Source: Methanosarcinaceae archaeon (GTDB lineage Archaea; Halobacteriota; Methanosarcinia; Methanosarcinales; Methanosarcinaceae). From it: a stretch of DNA of 24,669 bases. Each line of letters begins with the position of its first letter. Position 1 is the stretch's first letter. Shown here piece after piece: positions 2,156-20,106 of this stretch. The stretch lies in assembly GCA_021106765.1 (NCBI GenBank), contig JAIOTO010000108.1, positions 1 through 24,669 on the forward strand, read 5' to 3'. Under the pieces are notes generated by a model that worked only from the letters and a program-made list of their open reading frames with translations, had not been told where the DNA came from and searched no databases. The position numbers and the translations under genes were made by a program.

Positions 2156-2971
2156 ATGGCCCAAGCATCTATCTTATCCTATAACATACCCCTTACAGAC
2201 ATTGGCATCACCGACCTCATAGCTGCACTGCTGGTCGTGGTGATCGGCTATCTCATATCTGGCGTACTTTCCCGGATGTTCAGGGAGGGATTGAGCAAAA
2301 CCGAGCTACCAGTACTGGTAGCCGAATTCCTTACACGTTTCTTCTCTGCAATGCTGTACGTAGCCATCTTTCTCATAGCAGTATCCACACTGGACTTCGA
2401 CATCAGTTCAGTGGTCGTCGGCCTCTCCGCAGTCATTGGCCTGATACTGGGTTTCGGAATGCAGGATACATTAACAAACCTTGCTTCAGGCGTATGGATC
2501 GCAACCCTACGCCCTATTGATAAGGACGAGTACGTAAAGATCAATGACATATCCGGTACAGTATCGTCCGTCGGGATCATGGCAACCGAGCTGCTAACAC
2601 CGGACAACCAGCTGGTCACCATCCCGAACAAGCTTATCTGGAATGAACCCATCATCAATGCCACACGGATGCCCACACGACGAGTCAGTGTTGACGTTGG
2701 CATCAGCTATAGTGCAGATTTGGAGACTGCCATCAAGATTGCCCTTGACCTCATGAACAAACATCCACTAATACTGAATGACCCCGCTCCAGCAGTAGTG
2801 ACCACGGAACTTGCCACCTCATCCGTGAACCTGCAATTAAGGGCCTGGACAGATACCGAGGACTTCTGGACTGTTAAATTCAACATGACCAACGGCATTC
2901 TCAATATATACAAAGATAATGGAATAGAGATACCATTCCCACAGATGGATGTCCACATGGACAGATCGTGA
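2156..2971 (+). CDS. MscS-family small-conductance mechanosensitive channel (271 aa)
   Basis: Three N-terminal transmembrane helices are followed by a beta-rich cytoplasmic domain with MscS-like motifs such as LASGVWIATLRPIDKDEYVKI and GTVSSVGIMATELLT. An SD (GGAG) precedes the start. Confidence 0.78.
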   Translation: MAQASILSYNIPLTDIGITDLIAALLVVVIGYLISGVLSRMFREGLSKTELPVLVAEFLTRFFSAMLYVAIFLIAVSTLDFDISSVVVGLSAVIGLILGFGMQDTLTNLASGVWIATLRPIDKDEYVKINDISGTVSSVGIMATELLTPDNQLVTIPNKLIWNEPIINATRMPTRRVSVDVGISYSADLETAIKIALDLMNKHPLILNDPAPAVVTTELATSSVNLQLRAWTDTEDFWTVKFNMTNGILNIYKDNGIEIPFPQMDVHMDRS

Positions 2972-3013
2972 TCGGAGTAAGAGCAAAATAGAGGCATCAG
3001 ATCGATTGTAAAG

Positions 3014-3085: not shown

Positions 3086-3134
3086 ACCGGATGTATTCTA
3101 ATACAGATATTATGATTTAACCGTTTCGCTCCGA

Positions 3135-4148
3135 TCAATCGATTTTTACATCGATGCACACATTATACTGATGAGGTGCATATGACCGGACCGTGCGAGT
3201 ATTGAGCACCTTGATAGTGCGCCCGACCCTGTGAGCAGCCTCATGTATCAATTTGATGGAACTCTCGAACAGATCGTCCTCAGGCGTCATTGCATAATAA
3301 TGAATGACACCATCATGTCTGACCATCGTGATTGCAGCATCCAGGAACTCATAGGCACTGTGAGGCAGGTTCATGATCACATGATCTGCCACGCCTTCCT
3401 TGTCACGAGCCACATCGTTCGCGTCACCCTCGATCACCTCTACATTTTCCACCGAGTTCATATCGACATTCTTTCTCAAAAAACGAACCGCATCCGGATT
3501 TTTATCAATAGCAATAAGATTATGACATTTGCGGGCAGCCGGGATAGTGTAGGGACCCACACCCGCAAACATATCCACCACCACTGATCCGGGTTCCAAT
3601 TGCGCCACGATGCGCTGCCTTTCCGTTGAGAGACGGGGAGTGAAATATGCACGAGCAAGGTCCACCATATATCGGCAACCATGGTCCTTGTGAATGGTCT
3701 CGGTCCGATCCTCCCCCGCAAGCACACGGAACTGACGCGTGCGGAATTCGCCTTCGACGGCAGATGTGGCACCCAGTACCGTCTTTATGTGAGGATGAAA
3801 ATCGATCAGTGTCTGGGCGATCCTTTCTGCATGTGGCTCATCGGCTTCGATGATGGCGATAGCACCCACCACCTCATAATGTGGTGTGAATCCAAGAACA
3901 TCATCCAGTTTGAGCTGCTGCTCCTGCTGGCAGAACTCGTGCCCTATCACTCTGGCATTGCCAGGCAGAACAGCCAGATAGTCAGCAGGCAGTTCCCCCA
4001 ATAGCGGAAAATAAAGAAAATCATTATCTGAGGCGATCCTGGCAGAATGATCAATAAGTCCCAGCTCCATAAGAGCCCTGCGGGCCGGTTCTCCACTCTT
4101 TTTTGCAACCCTCACGCATAACTGTTCCATAGGCACATCACCACACAA
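3135..4148 (-). CDS. trm5: Class I SAM-dependent tRNA methyltransferase of the Trm5/Taw2 family (tRNA m1G37 methyltransferase-like, 337 aa)
   Basis: The VVDMFAGVGPYTIPAA SAM-binding motif and the IMNLP motif are hallmarks of the Trm5/TYW2 family. The start is uncertain: MEQ at 4130 is an alternative. The ORF overlaps the upstream gene end by 11 nt. Confidence 0.72.
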   Translation of the reverse strand: MCGDVPMEQLCVRVAKKSGEPARRALMELGLIDHSARIASDNDFLYFPLLGELPADYLAVLPGNARVIGHEFCQQEQQLKLDDVLGFTPHYEVVGAIAIIEADEPHAERIAQTLIDFHPHIKTVLGATSAVEGEFRTRQFRVLAGEDRTETIHKDHGCRYMVDLARAYFTPRLSTERQRIVAQLEPGSVVVDMFAGVGPYTIPAARKCHNLIAIDKNPDAVRFLRKNVDMNSVENVEVIEGDANDVARDKEGVADHVIMNLPHSAYEFLDAAITMVRHDGVIHYYAMTPEDDLFESSIKLIHEAAHRVGRTIKVLNTRTVRSYAPHQYNVCIDVKID

Positions 4149-4749
4149 TGAACCAGGCGCCGAAACCGATCAGGAAGACACCACATGAAAACAAGACCTT
4201 TTGGTACATGCCTGCAGACATCAACCCTCTGCCACGGCTAAAAGAAGCAGATACTGCAGTGAACCAACCAATGTCCGCCAACCAGTGCCCTATCATGAAG
4301 AACACTACTGTCAGTATTCCTGCTTCAAGTCCCTTTAGCACAAGGGCGCTGCCTGCAGCCATCCACCATACCCAGAAATAAGGGTTGGACGCCGAAGATA
4401 AAAAACCTGCATACACCGGATTAGTGATCACTTCATTATGAGTATGCAGCTCATCGCATGCACCCCTTGCCTGTTTGACCGTCAGGACACCGAACACTAT
4501 GAGAACAGAGCCGCCCACAATAGAGATCACAGACATCTCCCGTTCGCCTATGAACGATGTCATACCATAAATGATCAACAAGCATACCAGAAATTCGATC
4601 ATGGCATGTCCGAGGAATACCTGCGGACCAGCGATCCATCCCCTCTTCAGGGAACTATCTATGGTCACAAAGAGCATTGGGCCTGGCACCAGTGCACCGG
4701 TCAGGCCCACTACAAAGCCTATTAACAGCATATCCAGGATTTCGAACAT
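4138..4749 (-). CDS. LysE/RhtB-type amino-acid exporter family membrane protein (203 aa)
   Basis: Six predicted TM helices and an N-terminal GxxxGxxxxPGP motif (VGLTGALVPGPML) characteristic of the LysE translocator family. An NPY motif is also present. Confidence 0.68.
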   Translation of the reverse strand: MFEILDMLLIGFVVGLTGALVPGPMLFVTIDSSLKRGWIAGPQVFLGHAMIEFLVCLLIIYGMTSFIGEREMSVISIVGGSVLIVFGVLTVKQARGACDELHTHNEVITNPVYAGFLSSASNPYFWVWWMAAGSALVLKGLEAGILTVVFFMIGHWLADIGWFTAVSASFSRGRGLMSAGMYQKVLFSCGVFLIGFGAWFIVW

Positions 4750-4760
4750 GGATCAGAAAA

Positions 4761-4778
4761 TGATATAATTAAAAAAAA
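4761..4778 (-). promoter_or_regulatory. AT-rich element: a T8 run on the minus strand (likely tfb terminator) overlapping a TATA-like box (TTTTTTAATTATAT) about 25 nt upstream of the LysE-type gene start
   Basis: An A8 run sits at 4771-4778 on the plus strand, 65 nt downstream of the tfb stop on the minus strand. The TATA-like box is too close to the ATG at 4749 to leave a leader, which suggests a leaderless transcript. Confidence 0.4.
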
Positions 4779-4842
4779 TGAAAGAGAGCAGAACATGTCC
4801 ATCATGATCGTTCTGCGGTCCTCCGAACACATTAATACCAGA

Positions 4843-5865
4843 TCAAAGTATGATCTCGATATCCAGTTCCTCTGCCAATTCCTTATAGCGGTTCCGGATG
4901 GTAACCTCGGTCACGCCGGCAACATCCGCCACCTCACGCTGGGTCCTGCGCTCACCGCACAGGATAGACGCGATATAGATCGCAGCGGCGGCCACACCGG
5001 TTGGACCTCGACCACTGGTCAGCTCCTTCTCGGATGCCTGACGCAGGATCTCTACGCCTCTGGACTGCACCTCTCCTTTAAGGTTCAGACCCGAACAGAA
5101 CCTTGGAACATAATCGATAGGGGATGTTGGCATCAGTTTCAGCGACAGCTCACGGGAAATGAAACGATAGGTACGTCCGATCTCCTTTCGACTGACCCTT
5201 GAAACCTCACCGACCTCATCCAGTGTTCTGGGTACACTGCACTGGCGACATGCTGCATACAACGCTGCGGCAGCCACACCTTCAATACTCCTTCCACGTA
5301 TCAGGTTCTTGTCAACGGCCTTTCGATAGACCACAGCAGCAGTCTCACGTACAGTACGCGGCAGACCAAGAGCTGAGGCCATCCTGTCCAGTTCGGACAG
5401 TGCGAACGCCAGGTTCCTCTCCGTAGCATTGCTTACACGGATACGACGCTGCCATTTTCTCAATCGGTATAATTGTGCACGATTCTTGGAGGATATGGAC
5501 TTCCCATAGGAATCCCTGTTCCTCCAGTCGATCATTGTGGAAAGACCTTTGTCGTGGATGGTATAGGTCATCGGAGCACCGACACGAGAACGCTTCATGC
5601 GCTGATCGTGATCGAATGCACGCCACTCAGGCCCCTCGTCGACAAAGTCCGCATCAACAACAAGTCCACAGTTACTGCACACAAGCTCAGCTCGTTCATA
5701 ATCCCGGTCCAGATTACGACTTCCGCACTCCGGACATTCCATTACTGTCTCCACTACTTCAGCACTCTTTTCCTTCTGATTACGCGCCTTGATCATAGCA
5801 CGCATTTTGTCTCGCTCTGAAGTATCAGAATAGCGTACTCTTTCAACTTCTACCATTTTTATCAA
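4843..5865 (-). CDS. tfb: Transcription initiation factor IIB (TFB) (340 aa)
   Basis: An N-terminal zinc ribbon (CPECGSRNL...CSNCGLV) is followed by two cyclin-fold repeats with typical TFB motifs ([18 protein letters not shown] and [16 protein letters not shown]). The adjacent gar1 matches the conserved gar1-tfb archaeal arrangement. Confidence 0.95.
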
Positions 5866-5960
5866 TACCTCTGTTTTATTAGATGAAGATTATAAATATT
5901 TCACAAAAAGCAACAATATATTGCAACTACGCCATTAATATCGATAAGCAACACACTCAA

Positions 5961-6218
5961 TTATCGAATGTAAACTTTTTCTTTGACATAGGACCTTAGC
6001 TCATGAGCAGACATATCATTAAATGCTCTGACCGCAATATATGGACGGTCGACAGGTCCCATAATAGCAGCGACTTTACCAATTGTCGTTACCGTTTTGC
6101 TTACAACGGCCGAATTGAGGGATGGCATGTCTCCAATGGATCTGATTGACGTAGCGTCCCCCCTGACAATTAGTTTCTTGCTTCCTGACACCGTTAATAC
6201 TGTCCCGAGCCTTTTCAT
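5961..6218 (-). CDS. gar1: H/ACA ribonucleoprotein complex subunit Gar1 (85 aa)
   Basis: A small beta-barrel protein (MKRLGTVLTVSGSKKLIVRG...GKVAAIMGPVDRPYIAVRAF) with the typical archaeal Gar1 sequence pattern. It lies directly upstream of tfb on the same strand. Confidence 0.8.
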   Translation of the reverse strand: MKRLGTVLTVSGSKKLIVRGDATSIRSIGDMPSLNSAVVSKTVTTIGKVAAIMGPVDRPYIAVRAFNDMSAHELRSYVKEKVYIR

Positions 6219-6456
6219 AGATCATCCCATTTGCAACATATAAGTCGTTTTGAAACTATTTATAGATATAATCAGTACTATATAAGTATATCGCAATCTC
6301 TTTAATAGTCAGCTCATAATATATACATTTATAAAATATATTAAAACGTATATACTAAAATAGAGTTCATACCCGGTACCAAAATATCCATTAAGTCGGC
6401 AAACTTAAAATAAAATAAACTCTTTGAAGCACCGAGTACTAATATGAACCTGTTCC

Positions 6457-9129
6457 ATGGGAGGATATTTCGTGGTTGATAAACAATTCGTCTACCATTT
6501 TGGAAATAATGAAACTGAAGGGAAAAGCAGTATGAAAAATCTGCTTGGGAGTAAAGGTGCAAACCTGGCAGAGATGGCAAATATTGGAATTCCTGTGCCA
6601 TCAGGATTTACAATAACTACTGAGGTCTGTGTTCTATACCTGGAAAACAATCAATATCCTTCGGGGTTAATGGAACAGATCGATAGGTCAATCCAAAAAC
6701 TCGAGAAAGAGGATAGCAAGATATTCGGGGATCCTGAGAATCCACTCCTATTATCAGTGAGATCAGGTGCCCGGATATCCATGCCAGGAATGATGGATAC
6801 CGTTCTAAACCTCGGCCTTAACGATGAATCCGTGGCTGGACTTGCCACTCGGACAGGGAACGAACGTTTTGCATATGACAGTTACAGACGCTTCCTCACA
6901 ATGTTCGCTGACGTTGTGCTTGGTATAGAGTATAATGAGTTCGAATCTCTTATTGATGAGAAGAAAAAGGAACTTGGTATCACGCTGGACACTGAGCTTG
7001 ATATTGATGCACTGAAAGATCTGACCGAGAAATTCAAGAAATTGATCGAGAAGCACACTGGTGAACCATTCCCCCAGGACGCAAGGAAACAACTCCAGAT
7101 GTCCATCAATGCCGTGTTCAGTTCCTGGAACAACCAGCGTGCCATCAAATATCGCAAGATCAACAAGATCCCGGGCGAGTGGGGTACCGGTGTAAATATC
7201 CAGAGCATGGTCTATGGTAACATGGGCAACAATTCCGGGACAGGTGTGGCGTTCACACGCGACCCTGCCACCGGAGAGAAAAGATTCTTCGGGGAATACC
7301 TGATCAATGCACAGGGAGAGGATGTTGTAGCAGGTATCAGGACACCTAAACCGATTGATGATCTGAAGAATAACATGCCCGAAATATATGGTCAACTTGA
7401 AGACATCCAACATAAACTAGAAGAACATTACAGGGACATGCAGGATATCGAGTTCACTATCCAGGAAGGCAAATTGTACATGCTTCAGACCAGGACAGGT
7501 AAACGAACAGCCATATCAGCCATCCGTATCGCCACAGAAATGGTAGAAGAGGGCCTTATCGACAAAAAGACCGCCCTGATGCGTGTGGACCCTGATCAGA
7601 TCGATAAACTCCTGCACCCAATGATCGATCCCGATATCTCACTTGATGTGGTAGCAACTGGTCTGCCCGCCTCACCGGGAGCCGCAGTGGGTAAGATCGT
7701 ATTCACGGCAGAGGATGCTGAAGAGAAGGTAAAGGACGGCATCAAGACAATCCTAGTGCGGACGGAAACGTCCCCCGAGGACATCGGTGGCATGAACGCA
7801 GCCGAAGGTGTGCTCACGGTCCGTGGTGGAATGACCTCGCATGCAGCCGTCGTTGCGCGTGGTATGGGAAAACCCTGTGTTGCAGGCTGCGGTGACATAA
7901 CAATCGACATGAACCAGGGAATCCTCACCGTCAAGGATATCAAAATAAAAGAAGGAGACTTCATTACCATCGACGGCAGTACCGGTAATGTCATCATAGG
8001 AAAAGTAGAACTCGTCGAGCCTGGTGTGACAGATGATATGGATGACATACTAAAATGGGCCGATGAGGTGCGCACCCTGAAGATCCGGGCCAATGCCGAT
8101 ACGCCACACGATGCAACGGCTGCCAGAGACTTCGGTGCCGAAGGGATCGGATTGTGCCGGACGGAGCACATGTTCTTTGGAGAGGACCGTATTCCTGCTG
8201 TGCGAGAGATGATAATGGCAAAGGATACCGCAGCACGTAAGGCGGCTCTGGATAAACTCCTGCCCATGCAAAGAGAGGATTTCATTGGCATATTCCGTGC
8301 CATGGAAGGCCATCCAGTGACAATCAGACTCCTTGACCCACCACTGCACGAATTCCTGCCAAAACACATGGAACTCACCAAAACGATCAGGGAACTAAAA
8401 GCGAACAATGCATCCCAGGATGATATCGATGAGGTCAGGAAAGTGATCGATCGGGTGGAATCCCTTAGCGAAATAAACCCAATGCTCGGGCACAGAGGCT
8501 GTCGTCTTGGCATAACCTATCCTGAGATCTACGAGATGCAGGTACGTGCCATTATCGAAGCTGCCTGTGAGCTCAATCTCGAGGGTATGAACATCGAACC
8601 CGAGATCATGATCCCCCTGGTAAGTCATACCAACGAATTCGAGGTAGTCAAAAATGACCTGATACCTGTTGCGAAAACAGTCATGAAGGAAAAGAATGTG
8701 GAACTGGAATATCATGTAGGTACAATGATAGAACTACCACGTGCCGCACTTACAGCTGACCAGATAGCAATCGAGGCAGAGTTCTTCTCATTTGGCACCA
8801 ATGATCTGACACAGACAACCTTTGGATTCAGTCGGGATGATGCTGGCACATTCCTGCCATATTATAACGAGGAGGATATCCTTGAGAACGATCCGTTCGC
8901 AGTCCTTGACCAGGAAGGTGTAGGGCAACTGATAAAGATCGGTATAGAAAAAGGAAGATCCACAAGACCCGATCTTAAGATCGGACTCTGTGGTGAACAC
9001 GGTGGAGAACCAAGATCGATCAAGTTCGGCCATAATATTGGACTGGACTATGTCAGTTGTTCACCATTCCGTGTACCGATCGCACGACTGGCTGCAGCAC
9101 ATGCTGTCCTGGAAAATGAAGAAAAATAA
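6457..9129 (+). CDS. ppdK: Pyruvate, phosphate dikinase (890 aa)
   Basis: Full-length PPDK. The N-terminal ATP-grasp region carries [11 protein letters not shown] and [10 protein letters not shown]. The central phosphohistidine domain carries [19 protein letters not shown]. The C-terminal PEP-utilising TIM barrel carries CRTEHMFF and NDLTQ. The exact start is uncertain within the first ~25 codons. Confidence 0.95.
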
Positions 9130-15476: not shown

Positions 15477-16769
15477 TCACATCTTAGTTCCACATTGCCC
15501 ACAGAAGTTAGCTTCAGCCGGTATTGTCGTGCCGCAGGCTGGACATTTGCGAACGCTGGGAGACATTTTTGCCTGTGCAGCACCCATCATCTTCGAGTCC
15601 AGATCCTGTCTTCGATAGGAATCTTCACGTTCACGGTCTTCCACTTTCATCATAAGATCGAGTTTGTCATCCTTTGCTCTTGCCTCGCTTTCCTTGACCT
15701 TGGCCAGTGCTGCGATCTGTTCCGGTGATAGACTGCCAAACTCGCGCCCTTCGCTGATGGTCTTTGCCGTATCAGCACCACCCGCCTCAGTAACAGTTCT
15801 GACATATTCCATATCACGTGCGTGTTCCCGATCCTGCATATCCTGTTCCACTTCAAGCTCGGCGCGCACACCTCTGGCTTTGGAAAGATGCATGTCTTCT
15901 TTTAACTTAAGGGCTTCACGGGCTGCCCTGATGTCCGATTCATCCTCCAGACGTTCGATCTCAAGCTGTGATTTCACACCTTTTAACTGCTGATCCCTCT
16001 CAAAATCCACCCCGGCAGAAACTGTTGCCTGCTCTGCACGAACTCCTGCTACATCCACTCTCCCCGCACGTTCATGATCACCTTCAATGGAAAGTGTATC
16101 CATCTCTTTGAGCTCTTCATGGGTCTGGTATTCGTTCCTCTTCGCCATGACCTCTGCATAGCTTCCAAGATCCCATTGCACCGTGTACTTCATCAATTCA
16201 AGTCCCCACATGGTAAGGGTGGACTTGAGTTGCATCTCCAGTTCGTTCTCCATTGTAAGTTGAAGATCCCGGTTACCGTAGATGTTCTCGATACTCACCT
16301 GTCTTATCTCAGGTTCCAGTACTCTGGTGATAGTCTCGCTCTTAAGATGCTGGTAGATATCCTGAATGGAAAGTGTCCTCTCACCGTTCTTAGCAGGAGT
16401 TGTATAAGAAAAGAACATCTGGAAAAAATGCTTTGGGTCCTGGATCCTGAACCGCAAGAGACCTTTGCACCCCACGTTCTGATCGTCAGAGGTCCACATA
16501 TCAGCGTATTCCCATTCAAGATCCTTTACGGACGTATCCATGAGTGCAACATCGACATCTGCCCTTATGTTACCTGGTTTGAACAAACCACCTACACGCA
16601 GTTTGCCACTATCGATTATTTCTTCGACCACTCCATTCTTGATCATAACGGCCTTTTCGTTGGGGGAAAGTATGATCGATTTGGAGAACACACCGCTTAC
16701 ATCTCTTTTTGATATCACACGGGCAATGTCATCGGACTGCTTTTTCCATTTGAATACCATATTTAGCAC
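15477..16769 (-). CDS. SPFH/band-7-like domain protein with a long charged coiled-coil region and a C-terminal double zinc ribbon (430 aa)
   Basis: The N-terminal ~210 aa have SPFH-like motifs (SPNEKAVMIKNGVVEEII, TSDDQNVGCKGLLRFRIQDPKHF, WGLELMKYTVQWDL). The central ~170 aa are E/R/D/K-rich and predicted coiled coil. The C-terminus is CPACGTTIPAEANFCGQCGTKM. An SD (AGGTG) lies 9 nt upstream of the ATG. Confidence 0.7.
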   Translation of the reverse strand: MLNMVFKWKKQSDDIARVISKRDVSGVFSKSIILSPNEKAVMIKNGVVEEIIDSGKLRVGGLFKPGNIRADVDVALMDTSVKDLEWEYADMWTSDDQNVGCKGLLRFRIQDPKHFFQMFFSYTTPAKNGERTLSIQDIYQHLKSETITRVLEPEIRQVSIENIYGNRDLQLTMENELEMQLKSTLTMWGLELMKYTVQWDLGSYAEVMAKRNEYQTHEELKEMDTLSIEGDHERAGRVDVAGVRAEQATVSAGVDFERDQQLKGVKSQLEIERLEDESDIRAAREALKLKEDMHLSKARGVRAELEVEQDMQDREHARDMEYVRTVTEAGGADTAKTISEGREFGSLSPEQIAALAKVKESEARAKDDKLDLMMKVEDREREDSYRRQDLDSKMMGAAQAKMSPSVRKCPACGTTIPAEANFCGQCGTKM

Positions 16770-16856
16770 ACCTATTATGTTCCTTGATCTTCTGCACCTG
16801 TAGAAAATGAGTTTCCTTATTTACATGTATATAGCAAGTATTATATATAGTGTTTT

Positions 16857-16872
16857 CCATTGTATACAATGG
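16857..16872. promoter_or_regulatory. Perfect 16-bp palindrome CCATTGTATACAATGG in the divergent promoter region, a candidate operator
   Basis: The element is exactly self-complementary. It lies just downstream of the TATA-like box TTATATATAG (16841-16850) and about 32 nt upstream of the start of the small RHH-like gene that heads the ESCRT-like operon. Confidence 0.5.
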
Positions 16873-16903
16873 TATATGTTATAGTATATCAAGCGGAGAT
16901 ATT

Positions 16904-17059
16904 ATGAAAAGATCCTACCCAGTGAGCGCAAGAGTCTCAGAGGATATTAAGCAATATTTAAGTGGACTTGTGGAAATGGGAATGGCAATTAATACATCTG
17001 AAGCATTGAAATTATGCATAAGATATGCCAAACAAAAGAAAATGGAGGAGGAACTCTAA
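16904..17059 (+). CDS. Small ribbon-helix-helix (CopG/Arc-like) putative transcriptional regulator (51 aa)
   Basis: The predicted beta-strand (SYPVSARVSEDI) followed by two helices (KQYLSGLVEMG and TSEALKLCIRYAKQ) fits the RHH pattern. An SD (GGAGAT) lies 5 nt upstream of ATG at 16904; the longer ORF starting at 16850 lacks an SD. Its stop TAA abuts the next ATG, which implies translational coupling. Confidence 0.55.
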   Translation: MKRSYPVSARVSEDIKQYLSGLVEMGMAINTSEALKLCIRYAKQKKMEEEL

Positions 17060-17629
17060 ATGGGACTTACGAATCCGTTCAAGAAAGTGTCACCTGAAGA
17101 GCTGAAAACAAAACTTGCAATATCAGAGCAGAGATTGAGCGCCCGCGAGAACGAACTGATCAAAAAGCGCCAGAAGGCACGTGAACAGGCAAAGGATGCA
17201 CTCAACAGCGGCAATGACCGCGAATTCAGAGTAGCATCGCGTCGTCACTCCATGGTAGATGGACAGGTCAACACCATCAGCAGTATGGTGGAGATGGCAC
17301 AATCCATGGAAGATGTCATAGAGATGGAAACCGGTCTGAAAGAGGTCGTTGAGATCGGAGATAATCTTGGAAAATGGCAAAAACAGCTTGGATTTGATAC
17401 TGCCAAATTGGAGGGTGCAGTCACCAACATCCGCACATCAATGGAAAAGGTGAACAGTGCAACAAATATGATGACCTCGTCCATGGATGCTGCTATGTCT
17501 GGTGGAAATGAACTTTCTGATATGCAGGATTCCCTCAGGGCTGAGCTGCTGGCAGAACTCAGCAGTGATACCGTGTCTGAGGACAATTTATCAAAGAAGA
17601 TCGAATCTGAGATGAAAGAGAGTGAGTGA
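17060..17629 (+). CDS. ESCRT-III/Snf7-family protein (CHMP/Vps2-like helical hairpin core, 189 aa) with a C-terminal MIM-like amphipathic helix
   Basis: The N-terminus MGLTNPFKK, the basic helix-1 (ELIKKRQKAREQAKDALNSGNDREFRVASRRHSMVDGQV) and the following helices track CHMP2/Vps2 motif by motif. The C-terminal acidic region holds DMQDSLRAELLAEL, which resembles MIM1. A GGAGGAGG SD lies 8 nt upstream. Confidence 0.72.
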   Translation: MGLTNPFKKVSPEELKTKLAISEQRLSARENELIKKRQKAREQAKDALNSGNDREFRVASRRHSMVDGQVNTISSMVEMAQSMEDVIEMETGLKEVVEIGDNLGKWQKQLGFDTAKLEGAVTNIRTSMEKVNSATNMMTSSMDAAMSGGNELSDMQDSLRAELLAELSSDTVSEDNLSKKIESEMKESE

Positions 17630-17700: not shown

Positions 17701-18852
17701 TTGGAGTCTGCAAGTTCACTGGCGGCACAAGCCCGCGGGTATGCAAAAGCTGCAAGAACCTTAGAAGATGATAACGAGAAGGCGCGGGCAAGGGAGCTCT
17801 ACCTGAAGGCAGCTAAGTTCTACAACGAAGCATCCCTGGTAACAACTGACAAGACCGACAGGAACACACAGCGCGACCTTGCAGAACATCTTCTCGATAA
17901 GGCACAGTCCCTCAAACGCTCCGGTACCCGGTATTCGGGTTCAGGAGTGAAGGAAGAAAGCGGGGATACTGACGAATCCGCATTATCTGAGGATGACCTT
18001 ATTATGAAACATACCCCAAATATCGGTTTCTCCGATATTGGTGGTCTCGAAACTGTTAAAGACGATATCAGGAAGGCTATTATCTATCCTTTTACCCATA
18101 CAGAACTCTACAAGTTATACGGACAGAAAGCAGGCGAGGGCATCCTGCTCCACGGTCCACCGGGCTGCGGTAAGACCATGATGGCAAAGGCGGCTGCAAA
18201 GGAATGCGGTGCGGATTTCATCAGTGTGAAGACCAGCAGCATTGTGAGCAAGTGGGTGGGTGCATCTGAAAAGAACATAAAGAAGGTCTTTGAAACTGCA
18301 CGTCGTTGCGAGAAGGCGATCATATTCTTCGATGAAATAGATTCCATTGCAGGGCGCCGCAGCGAGGCTGAGGATTACGCCAAACGTGTGGTGAACGAGC
18401 TCCTTGCCCAGATGGATGGTGTCGATACCGCTGATGATAAACTTCTGATACTTGCTGCAACCAACGAGCCCTGGGCCATCGATCCAGCCCTTCGCCGGCC
18501 CGGACGTTTCAGCAAACTCGTGTACATACCTGAGCCTGATCGCGATGCCCGTGATACGATCTTCAAGATCAACCTTAAGAAAAGACCCATTGCCAATGAT
18601 GTGGATGCTGGTCGACTGGCCAAGATAACAGAATCATATTCCGGCGCCGACATTGCTGCCATCTGTAAGGAGGCGGCAGACATACCATTGGGCGAAGCGT
18701 TGCGCGGAGGAGAGCCGCGCAAGATCGAAATGAGAGATTTTGTGACTGTGCTGGAGAGCCGAAAACCTTCTATACGCAGCTGGTATGCGGAAGCAAAAAA
18801 AGAGATCAGGAAAAGCGGGGAAGAGGATGTTTTCGGAGAGGTCTTCAAGTAA
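17701..18852 (+). CDS. Vps4/CdvC-like AAA+ ATPase with an N-terminal MIT domain (meiotic-clade AAA, 383 aa, TTG start)
   Basis: The N-terminal ~75 aa form a three-helix pattern that aligns by eye with the Vps4 MIT domain (AAQARGYAKAARTLEDDNEKARARELYLKAAKFYNEA...RDLAEHLLDKAQSLKR). Walker A is GPPGCGKT, Walker B is IIFFDEID, and SKWVGASEK is the meiotic-clade signature. An SD (GGAGGG) lies 6 nt upstream of TTG. Confidence 0.85.
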   Translation: MESASSLAAQARGYAKAARTLEDDNEKARARELYLKAAKFYNEASLVTTDKTDRNTQRDLAEHLLDKAQSLKRSGTRYSGSGVKEESGDTDESALSEDDLIMKHTPNIGFSDIGGLETVKDDIRKAIIYPFTHTELYKLYGQKAGEGILLHGPPGCGKTMMAKAAAKECGADFISVKTSSIVSKWVGASEKNIKKVFETARRCEKAIIFFDEIDSIAGRRSEAEDYAKRVVNELLAQMDGVDTADDKLLILAATNEPWAIDPALRRPGRFSKLVYIPEPDRDARDTIFKINLKKRPIANDVDAGRLAKITESYSGADIAAICKEAADIPLGEALRGGEPRKIEMRDFVTVLESRKPSIRSWYAEAKKEIRKSGEEDVFGEVFK

Positions 18853-18889: not shown

Positions 18890-19738
18890 ATGACCATTCA
18901 CGAAACCATCCCAGAAGACCTCCAGAGAACCAACCGGAAGACCGTGGTCAGCAATCTGAAAGAGGTCCATACGATAGTTGAACGACTTATCCATCAGACC
19001 TATCGGCAAAAGGATGCAGCTGCAAGTTCCGAACTTCGGGAGATCAGGAACAAGGTGACTTCAATGATTTCGGAGATAGAGAATACAGATCTCGATACCT
19101 TCGGTGGCAGGAAAGGTTCCCTGGATGATTTCTATGATGCCGAAAAGCAGTTCATCGAAAACTCTACCATACTGAAAAAAGAAATGGAAGATGCACTTGC
19201 CTCCGGGAAGGGGGGAGATACATTCTCACTGGACAATATGGTGGATGAACTGGGAAAAAGTTTTAACGAACGGGTGATCCTCACAGGGGAACATCTGCAG
19301 GAATACAGGGCACAGCAAGTGGAATCCAAAAGGGCAAGGGATGAAGCACAAGCCATCAAGACTGAGACAGTAACCGAAACTGAGACCAAAACCGAAACCA
19401 TTGAACAGCCTGAGCCAACTCCTGATCCTGTAGAACCTATCGGGAATATGACCATGGAAATGGATACGGAAACCCTCTCAAACTCTATAACTACATCAAC
19501 ACACTCGAACAGAAATACTCGAAATGTCAGCCGGATATCTCAAATAATGGGAATTACATATCAAACAAAACATGGAAGGTCGACCACACGAACAGGAGGA
19601 TTCGTGGTGTGGTCAAGGACGGCATGTTCAAGACCCCGCTTGTGCTTGAGACGTTCTGGCATCCCAGAGATGACGTACGGGATATCATCCAGTTCGTTCA
19701 GTCAAAAGCAAATGCGATTGGCAGAAACCAGTACATGA
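18890..19738 (+). CDS. Coiled-coil protein with an acidic Thr/Glu/Pro-rich linker; the 3' end is uncertain and a frameshift into the next ORF is probable
   Basis: The first ~185 aa look like genuine coding sequence (helical, charged), ending in TETVTETETKTETIEQPEPTPDPVEP. Beyond about nt 19470 this frame becomes S/R/T-rich and out-of-frame-looking, while frame +1 is open from 19426 and reads as bona fide protein sequence. Confidence 0.5.
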   Translation: MTIHETIPEDLQRTNRKTVVSNLKEVHTIVERLIHQTYRQKDAAASSELREIRNKVTSMISEIENTDLDTFGGRKGSLDDFYDAEKQFIENSTILKKEMEDALASGKGGDTFSLDNMVDELGKSFNERVILTGEHLQEYRAQQVESKRARDEAQAIKTETVTETETKTETIEQPEPTPDPVEPIGNMTMEMDTETLSNSITTSTHSNRNTRNVSRISQIMGITYQTKHGRSTTRTGGFVVWSRTACSRPRLCLRRSGIPEMTYGISSSSFSQKQMRLAETST

Positions 19739-20106
19739 GCCTGTGTCTTGTCAATGATGTCTGGGAAGAAGATATCATTGAGTGGGCAAAGGATTTTACA
19801 CATCAGCGTCTCATCCTGTACCTGTACGATTTGAAAAACGACATTCTCATCGTTAATGAAACACTTGCTGCTGCAGATCACTTCAGGTTCTGGCACACCA
19901 GGGAACTACAGAGAACAACTCTTGATGAGAAAATAGAGGATTACATTAATGAGATAGAGTATTTTACTGTGAAGGATGTTGCCGACAGGTTCGGACTCAA
20001 CCGGTCCGGTTCAGAGGATCTGCTTAAGGGACTGGTGAAGAAGGGGATAATCGTTGATGTGGGCTTTGGCGGAGATGCGAATTATACAAAAACGAAGCAG
20101 CAGTGA
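19609..20106 (+). CDS. Winged-helix protein (C-terminal wH motif FTVKDVADRFGLNRSGSEDLLKGLVKKGIIV); possibly the C-terminal portion of the preceding gene
   Basis: An AGGAGGA SD lies 8 nt upstream of the GTG at 19609. However, the reading frame is open and protein-like for another ~60 codons upstream, to 19426. The C-terminal ~45 aa form a classic helix-turn-helix-wing pattern. Confidence 0.55.
   Translation: MVKDGMFKTPLVLETFWHPRDDVRDIIQFVQSKANAIGRNQYMSLCLVNDVWEEDIIEWAKDFTHQRLILYLYDLKNDILIVNETLAAADHFRFWHTRELQRTTLDEKIEDYINEIEYFTVKDVADRFGLNRSGSEDLLKGLVKKGIIVDVGFGGDANYTKTKQQ

Follow-up and report, generated by a model that had tools for sequence, protein, structure and literature searches.

An exceptionally conserved promoter as a likely candidate switch for SPFH and ESCRT-III/Vps4-like membrane-remodelling genes in Methanosarcinales

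Genes and gene order around the divergent promoter

The stretch of Methanosarcinaceae DNA analysed here, 24,669 nucleotides at its full length and hereafter called the window, carries an operon of ESCRT-III/Vps4-like genes and, divergent from it, a gene encoding an SPFH protein. The first gene of the operon (16904..17059, plus strand) is preceded by a GGAGA Shine-Dalgarno sequence (16894-16898) and encodes a protein of 51 aa, probably a divergent member of the RHH family. Its TAA stop codon (17057-17059) directly abuts the ATG, at 17060, of a gene encoding a Snf7/ESCRT-III-like protein of 189 aa (17060..17629, plus strand), which has a weak match to Pfam Snf7 (E 0.01) and relatives in UniRef named 'Snf7 family protein'. 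The third gene (17701..18852, plus strand) encodes a Vps4/CdvC-like AAA ATPase of 383 aa with the Pfam domains AAA and AAA_lid_3; its alignment to NCBIfam CdvC is full-length and scores 244 bits, below the equivalog cut-off. The product of the fourth gene (18890..20106, plus strand) has a weakly EAP30/Vps36-like C-terminus. In the contig L001, which is otherwise near-identical, this last gene is intact and encodes 405 aa as a single ORF. The window lacks one T near 19480, and this 1-nt deletion divides the gene into overlapping ORFs of 282 aa and 165 aa; it reflects either a true frameshift or an error of sequencing or assembly. A thermosome gene is found 3' of the operon. On the minus strand, the divergent gene at 15477..16760 encodes an SPFH/Band-7 protein whose C-terminus carries a zinc ribbon (Pfam Band_7 and Zn_Ribbon_1), and the ATG at 16760 leads to a product of 427 aa, as called in related contigs. 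A second zinc-ribbon protein is also divergently transcribed, together with the SPFH gene.

The gene order, with the Zn-ribbon and SPFH genes on one side and the RHH, Snf7-like and Vps4-like genes diverging from them on the other, is kept in 37/37 reference-genome loci, as well as in four contigs carrying an identical 51-aa protein. The RHH gene lies immediately 5' of the Snf7-like gene in all 41 genome-derived loci, and the divergent arrangement of the SPFH gene is preserved in all loci extending far enough. Moreover, every locus with the RHH gene carries the promoter element described below, and the RHH gene always abuts the Snf7-like gene. Two distant Snf7-like loci, L162 and L163 (50-55% identity), are devoid of the RHH gene, of the SPFH gene and of the TGTATACA element. 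Regarding L162, a high-GC euryarchaeal contig, positions 3692-6768 encode a homologue of the window's 514-aa zinc-ribbon protein (its C-terminal two-thirds), which is co-oriented with the Snf7-like and Vps4-like genes and located directly 5' of them, with no RHH or SPFH gene. The link between the Zn-ribbon protein and the ESCRT-like genes hence predates the association with RHH and SPFH.

A palindrome embedded in a conserved promoter block

Between the two divergent units, the window contains at 16857-16872 the sequence CCATTGTATACAATGG, a perfect self-complementary palindrome of 16 bp that can be read directly from the DNA and that is located, exactly as the original prediction stated, 3' of TTATATATA and 5' of the 51-aa ORF. 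Taken from this single sequence alone, the palindrome is suggestive, that is, modestly unusual and not compelling. Three perfect 16-bp palindromes were observed in the window vs 0.41 expected from first-order Markov simulations, with at least one in 33% of the simulations, and the chance of finding one within the 143-bp intergenic region (29% GC) is about 0.01. The other two, CTACCAGTACTGGTAG at 2306-2321 and CCGATCTTAAGATCGG at 8969-8984, are within long ORFs (2156-2971 and 6457-9129, respectively) and have no apparent function. The palindrome at 16857-16872 thus owes its significance to comparative conservation and not to single-sequence statistics. An RNA hairpin or a known RNA was rejected as an explanation, the palindrome being upstream of the predicted transcription start site (TSS) on both strands and the Rfam matches being noise (E of at least 0.3).

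For comparison, upstream regions were anchored on the TATA box in 35, and later 40, non-redundant Methanosarcinales loci. The 40 unique loci span Methanolobus, Methanococcoides, Methanohalophilus-like, ANME-2 and Methanoperedens lineages, and synonymous sites are saturated among the several genera compared. Across about 40 unique loci, a 33-bp block (16836-16868) displays a mean pairwise identity of 92.5%, vs 86.5% for codon positions 1 and 2 of the RHH gene, 50% for its third codon positions and 46% for the flanks on either side of the block, which is therefore under tighter constraint than the adjacent protein-coding sequence. This nearly invariant block reads AA.TATTATATATA.TGTTTTC(C/T)ATTGTATACA, giving the conserved architecture BRE-TATA-GTTTTC-ATTGTATACA; on its 3' side, three variable positions are followed by G16872 (39/40 loci) and A16874 (100%). 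The original prediction had proposed looking for the same palindrome at orthologous operons, and the element proved to be conserved upstream of every such operon examined.

The symmetry of the palindrome is itself unevenly conserved. The conserved core ATTGTATACA (16859-16868) includes the dyad core TGTATACA (16861-16868), which makes up the inner four pairs of the 16-mer; its distance to the TATA box is constant, and it is present and symmetric in 38-40 of the 40 unique loci. Symmetry is also retained by the outermost C-G pair in 39/40 loci, vs just 17-23/40 for the middle three pairs. Positions 16869-16871 of the right arm are variable, this arm reading ...ACAAT(G/A)G or ...ACATA(G/A)G, and the left arm is invariant because it is part of a longer asymmetric block, GTTTTCYATTGTATACA. 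The operator had been proposed as a 16-bp symmetric unit: its TGTATACA core and outer C/G pair are indeed conserved, and the perfect 16-mer is found in only 4/35 unique genome loci (among them L016, with a compensated CT...AG version) and in L071, a Methanohalophilus-like metagenome contig. Judged from the aligned loci, function does not reside in a symmetric operator of 16 bp. The core is overlapped, in Methanolobus and Methanococcoides, by an alternative dyad, TTGTATACAT|AGGCATACAA, which is imperfect and extends over 20 bp, and Methanomethylovorans has a diverged version of the site, CCAAAGTATTAAATGG.

Around the block, two further elements are semi-conserved. A second box on the plus strand (16872..16879), one helical turn 3' of GTATACA, reads G.A.ACAA in relatives and GGTATATG in the window, with 0.6-2.0 bits per column; in Methanolobus and Methanococcoides, it is this box that forms the imperfect 20-bp dyad. 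To the left, an element at 16825..16834, reported as pseudo-dyad I3 in a repeat search, has the consensus ATATATTGGG with about 1 bit per column and reads ATGTATATAG in the window. About the TATA box, it mirrors the right-hand site, and it may be either the region where SPFH transcription initiates or a second, weaker site. Additional GTATA boxes (16828, 16872 and 16884) were rejected as tandem sites, as they lack conservation even in the closest relative, L005. A scan of about 285 kb, comprising the window and the loci, for other copies of the motif gave no second promoter-proximal target besides copy A of L006, located beside the SPFH gene; it also returned TTGTATACAA within coding regions in three Methanococcoides loci. 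When metagenomes were scanned with GTTTTCYATTGTATACA, 112/120 matches were attributable to chance and seven were true orthologous promoters, the match in L157 being probably due to chance.

Regarding the promoter itself, the predicted TATA box is real: TTATATATA (16841..16849; TTATATATAG at 16841-16850), whose core TATATATA (16842-16849) is itself palindromic, is invariant in the 35 unique loci. TSS positions and BRE assignments are those that we infer from the sequence and from the promoter geometry of Methanolobus psychrophilus, in which, by dRNA-seq, TATA boxes lie at -23 to -30 and BREs at about -35, with a consensus promoter made of BRE and TATA only (PMC5378194). From this geometry and the position of TATATATA at 16842-16849, the +1 of the operon would be at about 16872 (plus strand), the conserved G located 23 nt 3' of the TATA box. 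The putative plus-strand BRE of the ESCRT-like operon (16836..16840) comprises AA at 16836-16837, 100% conserved in the 35 unique loci and at about -36/-35 from this start, in agreement with the BRE centred at -35 in M. psychrophilus. [quoted passage not shown] On the opposite side, GTTTTC at 16852..16857 (GAAAAC on the minus strand) is 100% conserved and would be the BRE of the divergent SPFH promoter, since this A-rich hexamer is centred at about -35 from a minus-strand TSS predicted near 16819 by the same geometry.

Several features of the loci bear on whether this TATA box serves both directions. It is near-equidistant from the two start codons, the SPFH ATG being 36-81 nt away (mode about 57) and the RHH ATG 51-68 nt (mode about 60 from the left edge of the TATA box; typically about 52 from its right edge). 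In ANME-2 loci, the Shine-Dalgarno sequence and ATG of the SPFH gene are just about 25-40 nt from the TATA box, and there is hence no space for a separate SPFH promoter. In L006, a gene encoding a 207-aa methyltransferase-like protein (3108-3731, minus strand) is inserted between the SPFH and RHH genes, and the element of about 50 bp with TGTATACA is present in two copies (2950-3003 and 3915-3975), one per side, with about 10% mutual divergence. The sequence left of the TATA box is semi-conserved only and, in most genera, is not TATA-like on the minus strand. The original prediction assigned the SPFH promoter to TATATAC (16826-16838); as a TATA box, this sequence lacks conservation, the ANME-2 loci and L006 leave no room for a separate promoter, and a separate SPFH TATA box at 16826-16838 is without support across clades, though possible in the window's lineage. 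A single TATA box with correctly oriented BRE-like flanks is found at a TSS-compatible distance to both genes, and the SPFH gene probably uses this same central TATA box on the opposite strand, with GAAAAC as its BRE. The earlier idea of co-regulation fares better, as both divergent units very probably share a control region.

The 51-aa protein and its relationship to RHH regulators

Homologues of the 51-aa protein, 76-98% identical, occur in Methanohalophilus, Methanolobus, Methanococcoides, Methanomethylovorans, ANME-2 and Methanoperedens. Several of them bear the precomputed Pfam accession PF27540, so the protein may already be covered by a curated family. In direct comparisons, the window protein scores 13.9 bits against Pfam RelB (cut-off 22.4), and sub-threshold matches were obtained among 33 family members to RHH_1 in 15 (best E 9e-4) and to RelB in 14. 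Sequence searches of the PDB and Foldseek searches returned no significant match. The AF2 monomer (pLDDT 86.8) consists of two helices, with residues 1-6 as coil, the first helix starting from residue 7 and no beta-strand.

An exhaustive search of the family profile against 1.8 billion representative proteins, which gave 14 hits, retrieved P0042 at E 1.4e-4. This protein is above the RHH_1 gathering score (23.8 vs 20.5), has a precomputed PF01402 annotation and aligns with the 51-aa family in hhalign at 97.3% probability, with 37% identity over 46 columns. Moreover, the family possesses a Gly-turn and an S-E-A helix cap with a spacing equal to that of PrpA/ParD. As far as profile comparisons can tell, the RHH link is decisive by the transitive route through P0042, the direct fold evidence being weak, and we consider it quite likely that the 51-aa protein belongs to the RHH superfamily. 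The proposal of an RHH-type regulator gene is thus supported on two counts, the conservation of the small ORF and this transitive evidence. A kinship with the histone fold (NF-YB, HMfB; E 0.08-1.1) was dismissed as spurious, as it involves the L1-alpha2 segment only and the RHH link is far stronger; the profile hits P0034, P0036-38 and P0040-41, which are large repeat proteins, were considered compositional artefacts.

The start of the gene also deserves comment. A longer, 69-aa ORF starting from GTG 16850 (MFSIVYN...) was rejected: its frame and length vary, and an in-frame stop is present in L018, L033 and L035. The 'conservation' of MFSIVYN... in some database proteins arises because conserved promoter DNA is read in frame. 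In several ANME-2-like loci (L018, L030, L033 and L035) and Methanoperedens-like loci (L028 and L039), no ATG, GTG or TTG codon is available for the conserved RHH N-terminus; the in-frame stop of L018, L033 and L035 is a TGA upstream of the RHH coding region, and these ANME-2-like and Methanoperedens-like loci have a strong Shine-Dalgarno sequence (GGAGGT or GAGGTG) followed by ATC or ATA. This pattern suggests a non-canonical start codon in the ANME-2-like and Methanoperedens-like RHH genes. Database gene calls for these loci run on into the promoter (MFSIVYN...) in some cases and, in the others, are cut to 41-43 aa, without the beta-strand.

At the other end of the protein, the tail KQKKMEEEL (residues 43-51, past the predicted helix B) is almost invariant from genus to genus, with M47 and E48 invariant and E50 conserved in at least 90%. 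Such invariance, unusual for a minimal RHH repressor, suggests a protein-protein contact.

Candidate autoregulation, competing readings and known systems

The locus comprises an exceptionally conserved, probably bidirectional promoter that is a likely candidate switch for the SPFH and ESCRT-III/Vps4-like membrane-remodelling genes. On balance, we lean towards a compact bidirectional promoter in which a candidate TGTATACA operator is bound by the adjacent RHH protein, with repression of the ESCRT-III/Vps4-like operon and modulation of SPFH. This model builds on the conservation, geometry, synteny and transitive RHH relationship established by comparing the loci, and adds to them what binds the site and in which sense it regulates, two points that we infer, autorepression by the 51-aa RHH protein being the best model. 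The palindrome would then be the right-hand part of a compact bidirectional archaeal promoter of about 50 bp, organized around a single palindromic TATA box (16841-16849) with AA at 16836/7 as putative plus-strand BRE and GAAAAC at 16852-16857 as putative minus-strand BRE. From it, the RHH, Snf7-like and Vps4-like genes would be transcribed from near G16872, and the SPFH/Zn-ribbon gene from near 16819. ATTGTATACA, at -13 to -4 and with TGTATACA as its dyad core, would fall in the region of RNA polymerase recruitment and DNA opening for the operon and, at the same time, close to the SPFH promoter's BRE on its upstream side. As the most likely binder, a dimer of the 51-aa RHH protein, or a dimer of dimers, would dock at TGTATACA with its beta-ribbon in the major groove and prevent RNA polymerase from being recruited, leading to negative autoregulation of the ESCRT-III/Vps4-like genes, and from the same position it would modulate the SPFH promoter. 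Gating of this expression by stress or the cell cycle, as in the original prediction, would be conjecture.

Several observations speak against an RHH protein acting at this operator, namely RHH matches below threshold, non-significant PDB and Foldseek searches, a strandless AF2 monomer, an unconserved right arm and no second genomic target in the roughly 285 kb scanned. In addition, the tight translational coupling to the Snf7-like gene and the invariant acidic tail would equally fit a role as protein partner. One may thus consider that TGTATACA is the operator of an unlinked factor (e.g., of the Lrp, TrmB or MarR type), with the RHH protein acting elsewhere or as a partner of the Snf7-like or Vps4-like protein, which we regard as unlikely while giving it real weight. 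Indeed, in Methanomethylovorans the beta-strand of the RHH protein is identical and the site CCAAAGTATTAAATGG has diverged, so that there is no covariation between protein and DNA; the whole 51-aa protein, KQKKMEEEL included, is near-invariant, beyond the needs of a simple repressor; and the RHH stop codon abutting the Snf7-like start suggests stoichiometric co-production. However, the element and the RHH gene strictly co-occur, both being missing in L162 and L163, and the 8-bp dyad has a size fitting one RHH dimer, as in the MetJ met-box. Autoregulation by an RHH protein encoded by the first gene of its operon is, furthermore, the norm in characterised systems, being usual for CopG, Arc, ParD and omega.

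Alternatively, the block might need no dedicated regulator and simply be the core architecture of a strong bidirectional promoter in which symmetry is incidental. The TATA box and both its flanks are readable as BRE-TATA-BRE, the perfect 16-mer is lineage-specific, and with three perfect 16-bp palindromes in the window, some evidently arise without obvious function. Yet the ten invariant bases ATTGTATACA lie between the minus-strand BRE and +1, outside the known general archaeal promoter elements, this stretch is better conserved than the non-synonymous codon positions of the neighbouring gene, and copy A of L006 keeps ATTGTATACA with no plus-strand gene downstream, which together make a core promoter without regulator quite improbable. 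As for the palindrome being a chance product of AT-rich intergenic DNA, about 0.4 perfect 16-bp palindromes are expected per such window and the two others are apparently meaningless; the invariance of the core in about 40 non-redundant loci from several genera with saturated synonymous sites nevertheless effectively refutes chance, leaving it a negligible probability.

A further, very doubtful possibility is a feedback of the PspA-PspF kind, in which the tail of the RHH protein would bind the Snf7-like protein or the MIT domain of Vps4, and free RHH protein would report polymer assembly. Here, KQKKMEEEL would contact either the Snf7-like protein, translated alongside it, or the MIT domain of the Vps4-like protein, and the amount of RHH protein free to occupy the shared TGTATACA would reflect the assembly state of the ESCRT-III-like polymer. 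Control could be reciprocal, the ESCRT-like operon being repressed (site at -13 to -4) and SPFH activated (site upstream of its BRE). Like PspF-PspA (PMC7619361), the locus encodes an ESCRT-III-superfamily protein together with its own candidate regulator, and PspA systems associate with Band-7/SPFH proteins; however, PspF is an AAA+ sigma-54 activator and not an RHH protein, and partner-switching is here only conjectured.

Autorepression by the RHH protein, the reading that we prefer, has parallels among characterised regulators. [quoted passage not shown] As in the aCcr1/cdvA system (PMC9976878, PMC9976892), the protein considered here is a small RHH protein, the candidate operator overlaps the TATA-TSS region and the position of the motif is conserved in orthologous promoters; the mechanism proposed for aCcr1, blocking of pre-initiation complex formation, is also similar to the one proposed here. 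In contrast to the 51-aa protein, aCcr1 is encoded elsewhere in the genome and controls a multi-gene regulon, its target cdvA is absent here, its 9-bp box often occurs in two copies, and it belongs to the phylum Thermoproteota; binding is experimental for aCcr1 and predicted from sequence for the 51-aa protein. No sequence relationship was detected between aCcr1 and the 51-aa family.

CdrS offers a second parallel, as cdrS is located 3 nt upstream of ftsZ2 (PMC8406309). As in CdrS-ftsZ2 (PMC8406309, PMC7439475), an RHH gene lies 0-3 nt 5' of a cytoskeletal or membrane-remodelling gene with which it is presumably co-transcribed, a co-oriented arrangement seen here in 41/41 genome-derived loci, and both systems share a small RHH protein (at most 70 aa), synteny conserved within Euryarchaeota and a symmetric DNA motif. 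Unlike here, the partner of CdrS is ftsZ2 and not an ESCRT-III-like gene, and CdrS sites are mostly about 40-110 nt upstream of their targets and mainly associated with activation. No CdrS-family protein was among the 14 hits of the family profile, nor did any hit come from a large euryarchaeal family, which suggests, judged from profile-search hits alone, that the 51-aa family is separate from the CdrS family.

The locus also resembles the classical RHH autorepressors CopG, Arc/Mnt, ParD, omega and NikR, in which the RHH gene is the first of its operon and the operator, a (pseudo)palindrome or short repeats, overlaps the core promoter; where helix B begins, the G...S-E-A motif likewise has the spacing of PrpA/ParD. 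It differs from them by an archaeal promoter (TBP/TFB) instead of a sigma-70 one, by having no toxin or plasmid context and by a 51-aa protein that is directly below the Pfam RHH_1 threshold.

The functionally uncharacterised ESCRT-III/Vps4 system of Euryarchaeota has been noted before (PMC8281802, PMC7619361), and the Euryarchaeota with these ESCRT-III/Vps4-like genes divide with FtsZ. We found no description in the literature of a regulator of euryarchaeal ESCRT-III/Vps4-like genes; if the autorepression model is true, this system would gain its first candidate regulator and operator in the 51-aa protein and its site, which would also extend a pattern seen with aCcr1/cdvA and CdrS/ftsZ2, the control of archaeal division or membrane-remodelling genes by small RHH proteins. 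Should the PspA-PspF-like feedback prove true, it would give euryarchaeal ESCRT-III systems their first described regulatory logic. The locus is, moreover, a clean candidate for a bidirectional archaeal promoter built on a single TATA box. With a strictly linked RHH protein and a sharply defined, conserved candidate operator, it provides an experimental handle on the co-regulation of ESCRT-like and SPFH genes and on the timing of their switch-on.
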